Shown piece by piece: positions 23,697 through 49,419 of a stretch of DNA of 64,000 nucleotides (position 1 is the first letter of the stretch; every line of letters begins with the position of its first letter). The DNA comes from Gaiellales bacterium (GTDB lineage Bacteria; Actinomycetota; Thermoleophilia; Gaiellales; Gaiellaceae). The notes under the pieces were generated by a model. That model made no database searches and was not told the DNA's origin. It saw only the letters and a program-made list of their open reading frames with translations. The translations under genes and the position numbers were made by a program. Where the stretch lies: positions 9,663 through 73,662 of the forward strand of contig JBBQLT010000010.1 in NCBI GenBank assembly GCA_038328165.1, read 5' to 3'.

Positions 23697-23853
23697 ACCG
23701 CGCCTGTCGCCTGGTTGGGCAACGGCTCATCCGATCGCTTGCGTAAGCTGTTGTCGATGTCCAACTTCCCCTGCAGCCGGGTCGAAGAAACCAGGTGATC
23801 GGCGTGCATAGGGCGCGGGATTTTGAGCTCGAAGCTACACTGGCGATGCTTCT

Positions 23854-23926
23854 GGGCCCATAGCTCAGCTGGGAGAGCGCCGCCGTGGCACGGCGGAGGC
23901 CGTCGGTTCGAGCCCGACTGGGTCCA
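23854..23926 (+). tRNA. tRNA-Ala (anticodon GGC)
   Basis: Manual cloverleaf: acceptor GGGCCCA/TGGGTCC including the Ala identity pair G3:U70; D arm GCTC-AGCTGGGA-GAGC; anticodon arm CCGCC-GTGGCAC-GGCGG; T arm GTCGG-TTCGAGC-CCGAC; discriminator A. CCA is not encoded. Confidence 0.9.
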
Positions 23927-23930
23927 TCCA

Positions 23931-47498: not shown

Positions 47499-47705
47499 AT
47501 GCCGATCTACGAATACGTCTGCATGAGCTGCGAGTCCCATTTCGAGGAGCTCGTCGGCATGTCGGATCCCGATCCGGCCTGCCCCGACTGCGGCAAGGCC
47601 AAGGTCGCGAAGCAGTTCAGCACGTCGTTCGCAGCGCACGGCATGGCCGGGCAGCCCTCCTTCGGTGGCGGCTGTTGTGGCGGTAGTTGTGGCAGCTGCG
47701 GCTGA
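47499..47705 (+). CDS. FmdB-family zinc-ribbon protein
   Basis: [18 protein letters not shown]...CPDCG plus a Gly/Cys tail. TAGGGT hexamer lies 7 nt upstream of the ATG (leaderless-type). Confidence 0.85.
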
Positions 47706-49419
47706 TCTCTCGCTGCTCGCCTACGGCGACGTCGTCGCCGGTTGCACGAAGTGCGCGCTCGCCGCAGGGCGCACGCAGGTCGTCTTCGGCTCGGGCTCGG
47801 CGAGCGCGGAGCTGATGTTCGTCGGCGAGGCGCCGGGCTTCCACGAGGACAAGCAGGGCGTGCCGTTCGTCGGCGCCGCGGGCAAGCTGCTCTCGAAGCT
47901 GCTCGCGGGTATCGGTATCGAGCGCGACGAGGTCTACGTCGCCAACGTCATCAAGTGCCTGAGGTACAACGCTCAGGTTCAGCTTGGCGACGGTTCGTGG
48001 GCACGAATCGGCCGTCTGGTACGTGACCGGTATGACGGCACGGTGATGTCGGTCGATGAGGACGGTTTCCTCACTCCTCGTCGAGTAACCGGTTGGCACG
48101 CAAGCCCGTTGGCCGGGCGGAGAGTTTTCCGCGTGACGTTCGAGTCCGCCAAGCCAAACTCGAACGGCGGCGCGAACGTCGAGCTCACCGGAGATCATCC
48201 CGTGCTGACCGAGCGCGGTTTCGTTCCGGTCGAAGACATCATTCCCGGAGATCGGGTCGCCACAGGTCACGGGCTTAGCGATGTCGCCCGGGACGTCATC
48301 TGCGGCTCACTGCTCGGTGACGCCACGATTACCAGGGCGAGCTCTCACCTGCAGTTCGGCCACTCCCAGCGGCAGCTCGAGTACGCCCTTTGGAAGTCCG
48401 ACTTGCTCGAGGAGTTGCAAATGTCGTCGTCGCTCCTCGAAGTCGCGGCCGTAGTCGGCGGGACTCGAACCTACGGTGCGGTTCACGTCCGGTCGAAGTC
48501 GCATCGGGCACTACGGACGCTGCGAACGGATTTTTACGAGGGCAAGAAGCGCGTCCCGGCGTGGCTCGAGCACGAGCTCAACGATCGAATGCTCGCCGTG
48601 TGGTTCATGGACGACGGGTACATCCGGCGTCGTGCGAATGGCCGCTGCCGAGCGGAGATTGCAACGAACGGCTTTGATGCGGCGGATCTCCAAGTGCTGC
48701 TGCGCGCGCTCGCCCGCCTTGGGCTGTCCGCCAAAACATCGCGCGGTCGGATCTACTTCGACGCCGACACGAGTCAGGAGATTTCCTGGCGCATCGCCCC
48801 ATACACGCCGCCGTCAATGCGGTACAAGCTCGATCCCGCGGTAGCGGCTGCGATCCCATTCGACCCGGATCGATTCACGATCGCCGGCACACACGTCATG
48901 TTCGACGACATCGTGGTCGAAGACATCACCGATCGTCCCAGAACCGATACGACGTTTTTCTGCATCGATGTTGAGGGCACGCATAACTTCGTCACCGCCG
49001 GAGGCGTCGTGCACAACTGCCGTCCTCCGGGAAATCGCAACCCTCTGCCGGAGGAGATCGAGGCGTGCGAGGGACATCTCTTCCACCAGATCGAGTTGAT
49101 TCAGCCGAAGCTTGTCGCGACGCTCGGTAACTTCGCCACGAAGCTCCTCTCGGGCAAGCCGGCGGGGATCACGCAGGTGCACGGGCGGGAGCAGCGCGTG
49201 ACGCTCGGCGGTCAGGCCGTGACGCTCTATCCGATCTTCCACCCGGCCGCGGCGCTCTACACGCCGCGCATGCTCGCCGTGCTTGAGGCCGACTTTGGCC
49301 GCATCCCGGAGCTCCTCGGCCGCGCCGCAGCGGAACCGCCGCTCGTCGACCGTCTCGTCGCGGCCGCCCCGGCGCAGGAGCCCGCGCCGGCGGCGGAGCA
49401 GCAACTCGGCCTTTTCTGA
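47665..49419 (+). CDS. udg: family-4 uracil-DNA glycosylase interrupted by an intein (precursor 584 aa; about 230 aa after splicing)
   Basis: Exteins carry GCTKC, FVGEAPG, YVANVIK|C-RPPGNRNP and IFHPAAAL, the family-4 UDG motifs. The start is uncertain (GTG 47665, 47677 or 47689) and overlaps the fmdB end. Confidence 0.85.
47956..49017 (+). mobile_element. intein (354 aa) with LAGLIDADG homing-endonuclease domain
   Basis: Cys1 ([10 protein letters not shown]), block [20 protein letters not shown] motifs [10 protein letters not shown] (48301-48330) and [10 protein letters not shown] (48592-48621), block [23 protein letters not shown], and +1 Cys at 49018-49020. Confidence 0.85.

Follow-up and report, generated by a model that had tools for sequence, protein, structure and literature searches.

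What are 354 extra codons doing inside the most conserved motif of a DNA repair gene? The gene in question lies in a 64-kb window, the whole stretch of 64,000 nucleotides analyzed here, from contig JBBQLT010000010.1 of a Gaiellales bacterium. It encodes a uracil-DNA glycosylase (UDG) of family 4 that is interrupted in frame, on the forward strand, at positions 47956 to 49017. By sequence and predicted fold, the insert is an intein, with a Hint splicing domain and a LAGLIDADG homing endonuclease nested in it. We consider it very probable that this is a full-length mobile intein in a chromosomal family-4 UDG gene, with both splicing and homing inferred.

The open reading frame (ORF) of the UDG-intein precursor occupies 47665 to 49419 on the forward strand and contains 584 codons when read from the GTG at 47665. 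A preliminary description of this locus, made from the letters alone, had given the same ORF. The frame is there at that length, and the start differs from the public one. The identical protein in the public collection (P0001, an NCBI entry) has 580 aa and begins with the GTG at 47677. The start at 47677 also agrees with L002, an orthologous locus described below, where the UDG gene and the zinc-ribbon gene upstream of it overlap by 29 nt. The N-extein (47665 to 47955, aa 1 to 97) was read from the sequence. It ends in YVANVIK and aligns to the UDG structures 4zbx and 1ui0. It contains UDG motif A, GEAPG, at 47824 to 47838, and a Cys-x2-Cys pair made up of C27 (47743 to 47745) and C30 (47752 to 47754). 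The C-extein (49018 to 49419) runs from CRPPGNRNP to the stop codon and contains the UDG motif HPAAAL. Its first residue, the +1 Cys (TGC, 49018 to 49020), is the predicted splice nucleophile of the C-extein and also the third of the four conserved UDG Cys residues. The fourth, Cys468 (49066 to 49068), is found 16 residues past it. The insertion point lies between Lys97 and the Cys of the conserved motif N-V-x-K↓C-R-P-P (the arrow marks the insertion point here and below).

The host carries the features of a family-4 UDG on both sides of the insert. It scores 184.9 bits with TIGR00758 (UDG_fam4; NCBIfam), for which the cut-off is 125.3. The Pfam UDG profile matches the precursor in two pieces, one on each side of the insert. 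Removal of the intein in silico gives a 230-aa product in which the UDG motif is contiguous again and the Pfam UDG match is uninterrupted. The product aligns with no gap across the junction to 4zbx (S. tokodaii UDG; E 1e-49), where it matches NVVKCRPPNNR, and to 1ui0 (T. thermophilus; E 4e-43), where it matches NIVKCRPPQNR. Matches of the exteins to solved family-4 UDGs are full length, with E values from 1e-49 to 4e-39. Motif A (GEAPG), KCRPP, HPAAAL, and the four Cys residues are shared with 1ui0, 4zbx, and T. maritima TM0511 (1vk2). On the evidence of the profile, motifs A and B, and the four cluster Cys residues in its sequence, the host is a member of family 4. It differs from the solved and characterized family-4 UDGs in that none of these contains an intein, whereas in the window gene the fold and the cluster site could form only after splicing.

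Conserved Cys columns in the exteins number exactly four, in the pattern C-x2-C ... C-x15-C. They are kept in 97 to 100% of 235 exteins (97% for the first pair and 100% for the +1 Cys and Cys468 columns). The C-x15-C spacing of the spliced product is identical in 1ui0. We take the +1 Cys and Cys468 to correspond to Cys85 and Cys101 of T. thermophilus UDGA, as reported by Hoseki et al. 2003. In the precursor, the first and second pairs of ligand Cys are separated by 354 residues. Family-4 UDGs contain a [4Fe-4S] cluster ligated by four Cys residues (PMC5295032). The +1 Cys of the intein is, by alignment, at a [4Fe-4S] ligand position of the UDG, a point that the preliminary description did not contain.

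The insert encodes the conserved blocks of a splicing domain. Block A (47956 to 47985) begins with Cys1 (TGC, 47956 to 47958), the predicted N-terminal splice nucleophile. Block B, LTGDHPVL (48184 to 48207), includes Thr78 (48187 to 48189) and His81 (48196 to 48198), and it aligns to TPDHKVLT of the Mtu RecA intein. Block F (48955 to 48990) aligns to RTFDLEVEELH of the same intein and has Cys336 (48961 to 48963) at its position 4 (F:4). Block G, GGVVHN (49000 to 49017), ends in the penultimate His353 and the terminal Asn354 (AAC, 49015 to 49017). The stretch from block F through block G (48955 to 49017) is followed directly by the +1 Cys. The NCBIfam profiles TIGR01445 (intein_Nterm) and TIGR01443 (intein_Cterm) score 26.6 against a cut-off of 24.5 and 19.5 to 22.1 against a cut-off of 15.6, respectively.

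An AlphaFold2 (AF2) model of the insert, built with 77 homologues, had a mean predicted confidence (pLDDT) of 93.4 and a predicted template modeling score (pTM) of 0.89. In a Foldseek search against the Protein Data Bank, the whole model resembled the full-length TliVMA and PI-SceI inteins (E 2e-15 to 1e-11). The mini-inteins of Mtu RecA, Npu/Ssp DnaE, and Ssp DnaB were matched with probability 1.0 and a root mean square deviation (rmsd) of 1.6 to 3.3 Å. For the Hint part against the Mtu RecA mini-intein, the rmsd was 1.9 to 3.3 Å at 30% identity. The sequence and fold features that define class 1 are all present, namely, the Hint fold, Cys1, T-x-x-H in block B, and His-Asn followed by Cys+1. 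Sequence and model agree in predicting that the insert is a complete class 1 LAGLIDADG intein within a family-4 UDG. Cys1, T-x-x-H, His-Asn, and Cys+1 are common to it and the canonical class 1 inteins. In all of them the host is a DNA metabolism protein, entered at a conserved functional motif. Like PI-SceI/VMA1, TliVMA, and PI-MtuI/Mtu RecA, it has a Hint domain interrupted by a nuclease with two LAGLIDADG motifs. It is unlike the canonical inteins in its UDG host, its insertion before an Fe-S ligand Cys, and the presence of Cys rather than Asp at F:4.

The homing endonuclease domain is of the I-SceI type (Pfam LAGLIDADG_2) and occupies 48274 to 48855 (intein aa ~107 to 300). LAGLIDADG motif 1 (48301 to 48330) contains the putative catalytic Asp122 (48319 to 48321). 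Motif 2 (48592 to 48621) contains Asp219 (48610 to 48612) and Asp220 (48613 to 48615). PF03161 (LAGLIDADG_2) matches intein aa 112 to 261 with 83.5 bits against a cut-off of 25 (E 2e-23). With phmmer, 6x1j and I-SceI (1r7m) were matched over intein aa 107 to 297. Foldseek placed the domain of the AF2 model on 6x1j (I-WcaI) and 1r7m/3oor (I-SceI) with a template modeling score (TMt) of 0.69 to 0.70 and an rmsd of ~3 Å over ~205 columns, and the monomeric, two-lobed alpha-beta-beta-alpha-beta-beta-alpha fold was recovered. Motif 2, AVWFMDDGY, resembles AYWFMDDGG of I-SceI (in the context LAYWFMDDGG).

I-SceI and I-WcaI are mitochondrial enzymes encoded by group I introns. They share with the window nuclease the fold, the motifs LLGD... 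and (A)WFMDDG(G/Y), and a C-terminal P..M.YKL, at 23 to 26% identity. They are free-standing intron ORFs, whereas the window nuclease is nested in Hint and would be released by splicing. The window nuclease superposes better on I-SceI and I-WcaI (TMt 0.7) than on the nuclease domain of PI-SceI. Judged by sequence and model, the nuclease is nearest to the free-standing, intron-encoded I-SceI/I-WcaI group and not to the nuclease of any structurally characterized intein.

The residues predicted to act in splicing and cleavage are conserved. Conservation was scored in the best 120 database matches to the intein, all of them UDG-intein proteins with 62 to 82% intein identity (close relatives), and in a wider set of 102 distant relatives. 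Cys1 is kept in 117 of 118 close and 102 of 102 wider relatives. Thr78 and His81 are kept in 120 of 120 close relatives, as are His353, Asn354, and the +1 Cys. Among the nuclease residues, Asp122 is kept in 120/120 close and 101/102 wider relatives, and Asp219 and Asp220 are kept in 118/120 and 120/120 close relatives, respectively. The ratio of nonsynonymous to synonymous substitutions (dN/dS; Nei-Gojobori), calculated against the 82%-identical copy L003, was 0.12 for the nuclease, 0.10 for the Hint parts, and 0.10 to 0.15 for the exteins. By these sequence comparisons, the splice junction residues and the acidic residues of the nuclease are intact and under purifying selection. Selection on the nuclease is as strong as on the host enzyme, which argues for a working rather than a decaying endonuclease.

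Intein-free orthologues of the gene were present. The best 120 matches to the spliced extein are 208 to 237 aa long with 77 to 95% identity. One of them, P0157 (95% extein identity), is encoded on a 374-kb contig at locus L002. The gene order at L002 is that of the window: PanB, PanC, DUF2520 (minus strand), zinc ribbon, UDG, TsaE, TsaB, RimI, TsaD, and S8 peptidase. The empty site at L002 reads AATGTCATCAAG↓TGCCGTCCTCCGGGGAATCGC, also written ...GCAAATGTCATCAAG↓TGCCGTCCTCCGGGGAATCGC..., and the window reads AACGTCATCAAG↓(intein)↓TGCCGTCCTCCGGGAAATCGC. The left half of the putative homing site, TACGTCGCCAACGTCATCAAG, is at 47935 to 47955, and the right half, TGCCGTCCTCCGGGAAATCGC, is at 49018 to 49038. 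Joined, they give the empty site. How far the recognition site extends is inferred from this comparison of L002 with the window. Syntenic loci that bear the intein were found as well (L004 and L005).

The preliminary description had proposed a LAGLIDADG intein in a family-4 UDG, and curated cut-offs, the gapless spliced product, empty-site orthologues, and the Hint fold all bear this out. Cys1, LTGDHPVL, both LAGLIDADG motifs, His-Asn, and the +1 Cys were found where it had placed them. It had suggested Hint-N, Hint-C, and LAGLIDADG profile searches, for which TIGR01445, TIGR01443, and PF03161 exceeded their cut-offs. It had also suggested an alignment of the spliced 230-aa product, gapless here to 4zbx and 1ui0, and a search for intein-free alleles, for which L002 defines the empty site. 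It had also named outcomes that would speak against an intein. An insert with no Hint fold is ruled out by the intein profiles and by AF2 and Foldseek. Orthologues carrying the insert with no Cys1 and His-Asn-Cys junctions are ruled out as well, since the junction residues are kept in 117/118 to 120/120 relatives. The wording that every canonical class 1 element is present went too far. It is right for Cys1, T-x-x-H, His-Asn, and Cys+1 and wrong for F:4, which is Cys and not Asp.

Several observations are consistent with mobility. A neighbor-joining (NJ) tree was built from 235 exteins over about 206 columns, drawn from the best 120 intein matches and the best 120 extein matches, which came from separate queries. 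The 29 nearest extein neighbors of the window protein on this tree are all intein free. Parsimony on the tree gave, as an indicative count, at least 11 gains or losses of the intein versus ~78 for shuffled labels. Over 6,555 intein-bearing pairs, the correlation of intein with extein pairwise identity was, likewise as an indication, close to nil (Spearman 0.05). Inteins are at least 59% identical even where the exteins are 40 to 60% identical. The lowest-GC stretch of 1,062 bp in the window is the intein, with 62.4% versus 68.2 ± 2.1% (0.18th percentile), and the minimum at 47933 to 48994 coincides with it. GC content at third codon positions (GC3) is 0.75 in the intein and 0.85 to 0.88 in the exteins.

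A more distant copy and several shorter ones were recovered at the same UDG site. L001 (JACPST010000122.1) is from a metagenome-assembled genome (MAG) labeled Deltaproteobacteria, thus of a different phylum, with 42.5% GC and contains a 54%-identical intein. The search of genome contigs with a single intein query returned L001 only, and such single-protein queries reach close relatives only. The reading frame of L001 is broken at 600 to 760 by a frameshift and a deletion of ~9 codons just ahead of the first LAGLIDADG motif. Either the copy is decaying, and the break would then leave the UDG inactive, or the assembly is in error here. Four representative clusters (P0294, P0312, P0365, and P0377) have mini-inteins from which the endonuclease is deleted. 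The UDGs with mini-inteins are 384 to 421 aa long. Both Hint parts of the mini-inteins, N and C, are related to the window intein, and identity in the N part is 52 to 61%; P0294 is at L006, 213 to 1367. Empty sites, full inteins, and mini-inteins thus coexist, as expected for the stages of a homing cycle.

The life cycle that we propose has two parts. Translation would give a precursor of ~64 kDa. Cys1 would undergo an N-S acyl shift, helped by Thr78 and His81, and trans-thioesterification onto the +1 Cys would follow. Asn354 would then cyclize with the help of His353, and a final S-N shift would yield the mature UDG of ~25 kDa and a free intein of ~39 kDa. Splicing would free the thiol of the +1 Cys and restore C-x15-C, and only then would a [4Fe-4S] cluster and an active UDG be possible. 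The free intein would cut intein-less UDG alleles around AAYGTCATCAAG↓TGCCGTCCTCC and be copied into them through recombinational repair. Homing of this kind would account for the patchy distribution of the intein among close exteins on the tree and for its spread to divergent genes of the UDG superfamily, including the UDG-polymerase fusions of phages. That the target DNA encodes the most conserved motif of the UDG superfamily would explain why one intein family occurs in very divergent UDG domains.

Some points weigh against a mobile, splicing intein or limit how it may be read. Splicing and DNA cleavage are predictions from sequence and model rather than experimental results. The Pfam profile Intein_splicing (PF14890) scores 32.1, under its gathering score of 35.8. 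The gain and loss count and the lack of correlation come from sets made with different queries and from a crude NJ tree, and they serve as indications. The GC dip could partly mirror amino acid composition. With Cys at F:4, catalysis may depart in detail from the textbook class 1 route.

The residue at F:4 was the one departure from type. HMMER aligns Cys336 to the block F Asp of the Mtu RecA intein, and the Cys is kept in 120 of 120 close and 100 of 102 distant relatives. In standard inteins F:4 is usually Asp; PRP8 inteins have Trp there, and WCT inteins have Cys (PMC2807308). Asp at F:4 is a typical, not a defining, feature of class 1, and the window intein lacks it. Class 3 inteins are marked by the WCT triplet (Trp at B:12, Cys at F:4, and Thr at G:5), have no N-terminal nucleophile, and usually have Ser or Thr at +1 (PMC2807308). 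Assignment to class 3 was considered and rejected. B:12 is Val in the window intein (V, I, or F in 96 of 102 relatives, with 1 Trp), G:5 is Val and never Thr, Cys1 is invariant, and Cys is also the residue at +1. On its sequence, the window intein is filed under class 1, with an invariant Cys at F:4.

Among other explanations, the one that fares best is a domesticated intein. The element would be vertically inherited, its splicing would gate the maturation of the UDG, and its nuclease would be inactive or kept for a reason other than homing. Maturation could be triggered by redox state or Fe-S availability, acting on the thiols of Cys1, Cys336, and Cys+1. These are three invariant Cys residues at or near the active site, and the +1 Cys is at an Fe-S ligand position as well. 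Redox- or stress-sensitive splicing is documented in other bacterial inteins, e.g., in mycobacterial DnaB (PMC6195587). Presence of the intein is also strongly clustered on the extein tree, where 11 changes stand against ~78 for shuffled labels. The nuclease tells a different story, for its Asp residues are kept as well as the splicing residues and its dN/dS is 0.12, and homing is the simplest explanation of this. The nearest exteins of the window protein are intein free, related inteins occur in unrelated hosts, and empty, full, and endonuclease-less forms coexist in the classical picture of a homing cycle. We regard domestication as unlikely.

A nonstandard splicing route is less likely still. 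Cys336 would form a branched thioester, in the manner of class 3 or of a hybrid of classes 1 and 3. Its conservation in nearly all relatives, close and distant, fits such a role, and Cys at F:4 is characteristic of WCT inteins, three of which started with Ser or Cys in the 2009 InBase survey (PMC2807308). A related member of the family, the polymerase intein of T5-like phages, also reads ...WCIDV.... The rest of the class 3 signature is missing, however. B:12 is Val, Ile, or Phe (Trp in 1 of 102), and G:5 is Val and never Thr. Cys1 is invariant, block B retains the T-x-x-H of class 1, and a Cys stands at +1, a position at which Ser or Thr is almost always found in class 3 inteins (PMC2807308). 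A third alternative, in which the 354 residues would form an accessory domain or an embedded nuclease that does not splice, or the gene would be a disrupted pseudogene, is hardly credible. In its favor, splicing is a prediction and the relative at L001 has a broken intein frame. Against it, the nucleophiles at the junctions and the residues that assist them are all intact and hardly vary among relatives, and high confidence attaches to the predicted Hint fold. The insert separates the Fe-S ligand Cys residues and cuts the UDG fold within its most conserved motif, which would probably not be tolerated unless the insert were excised. There are 584 uninterrupted codons in a genome of 68% GC, with a dN/dS of ~0.1. 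This alternative was rejected on junction conservation, fold, and dN/dS.

The preferred reading remains a mobile class 1 intein, and the thiols add one speculative possibility to it. With its invariant trio of Cys1, Cys336, and the +1 Cys, the intein could be a conditional one, whose splicing, and with it uracil repair, is gated by redox state or Fe-S availability. The gate could consist of reversible disulfides or a thioester branch at Cys336. We think this rather improbable. If true, it would define a mechanistic subclass that has Cys1 and, of the WCT triplet, the Cys at F:4 alone. A large intein family, borne by phages as well as chromosomes and equipped with I-SceI-type nucleases, would share this subclass. 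Only the combination of Cys at F:4 with a +1 Cys at an Fe-S ligand position has some potential for surprise here.

The intein belongs to a broad family. The best 120 database matches to the intein are all UDG-intein proteins from Thermoleophilia-type MAGs, and the close homologues carry the names Gaiellaceae and Solirubrobacterales. When 1.84 billion representatives (50% identity) were searched exhaustively with HMMER, 3,667 clusters matched at E ≤ 1e-3, of which 203 reached E ≤ 1e-30. The intein was matched at near-full length in 110 clusters, and at least 61 of these have it at the UDG site. The 61 comprise 43 UDGs of stand-alone size and 18 larger fusions. By Pfam, the fusions are UDG-PolA (with or without a 3'-5' exonuclease), PolIII-alpha-UDG, and 5'-3' exonuclease-UDG. 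Related inteins were found in other hosts, including dCMP deaminase, a CapD-like sugar enzyme, family A polymerases, an MT-A70/ParB methylase, DegT aminotransferases, and a 2'-5' ligase-like protein. Four large polymerase-type proteins (P0248, P0259, P0353, and P0371) each contain at least two inteins of the family at different sites. P0248 is a UDG-PolA fusion with copies at aa 98 to 464 and 769 to 1140.

Phages contain relatives of the intein. Two viral contigs from IMG/VR, L007 (2315 to 5614) and L008 (3773 to 6154), encode UDG domain ORFs of 1,100 and 794 aa. Their inteins are 32 to 33% identical to the window intein and lie at the homologous site N-x-x-(K/L)↓C. These contigs point to phages as a reservoir or vector of the intein. 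The nearest relatives in GenBank phages are the inteins of DNA polymerases of T5-like phages, at ~25% identity. The protein of Escherichia phage SelmaRatti (MZ501103.1) is annotated as an intein-containing DNA polymerase precursor, and the alignment covers query residues 1 to 350 (E 5e-21). Its intein contains LAGLIDADG_2 and the block F/G pattern ...WCIDVKDNHNFVTKVGVVHN↓C. The polymerase inteins of SelmaRatti, Gostya9, and Salmonella phage smaug fall in the family of the window intein and have Cys1, T-P-D-H, and LAGLIDADG_2 in common with it. As in the window intein, there is a Cys at F:4 (...WCIDVKDNHNF), followed by VGVVHN and a +1 Cys. They differ in that the host is a family A polymerase, the site is ..PYA↓C...HN↓CKDTD, and the genome is that of a phage rather than a chromosome. 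The large intein family to which the window element belongs is recognized in annotation and probably vectored by phages.

The immediate surroundings of the gene contain two further features. A 68-aa zinc-ribbon ORF (FmdB/Zn_ribbon_8-like; 47499 to 47705) overlaps the start of the UDG ORF by 29 to 41 nt, depending on which start is used (47677 or 47665). The two genes overlap likewise in L002, L004, and L005, which suggests translational coupling. A tRNA-Ala (GGC) at 23853 to 23930 is the sole RNA gene that ARAGORN and Rfam, at gathering thresholds, found in the window.

Inteins are biased toward conserved motifs of DNA metabolism proteins. The element described here is of a textbook type, its DNA repair host fits that known bias, and the allele is abundant in metagenomes. 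The preliminary description had suggested that the allele may be undescribed or rare. The first part may stand, as our literature search found no paper on a UDG intein in the corpus covered. The second does not, given that the best 120 matches and at least 61 clusters have the intein in a UDG. In papers on crAss-like phages and PaBG and in a survey of PolIII-alpha, intein and UDG terms occur together independently of each other and no UDG intein is described. The main text of the intein survey of Novikova et al. 2016 mentions neither uracil nor glycosylase. Publicly, the UDG-intein proteins are named "uracil-DNA glycosylase family protein", with no mention of an intein.

A UDG intein does not overturn current understanding. 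It adds a host, a base excision repair enzyme, and a site, N-x-x-K↓C-R-P-P, directly before an Fe-S ligand Cys. Since public annotation does not mention the intein, UDG lengths and alignments in Thermoleophilia and in the UDG-polymerase fusions of phages would be misleading unless it is removed. The element could yield a new meganuclease of the I-SceI type, with a defined target of ~20 bp, as well as a compact splicing domain rich in Cys. Because a single site is found empty, with a full intein, or with a mini-intein, in chromosomes of more than one phylum and in phages, the family offers a convenient natural data set for the homing cycle.

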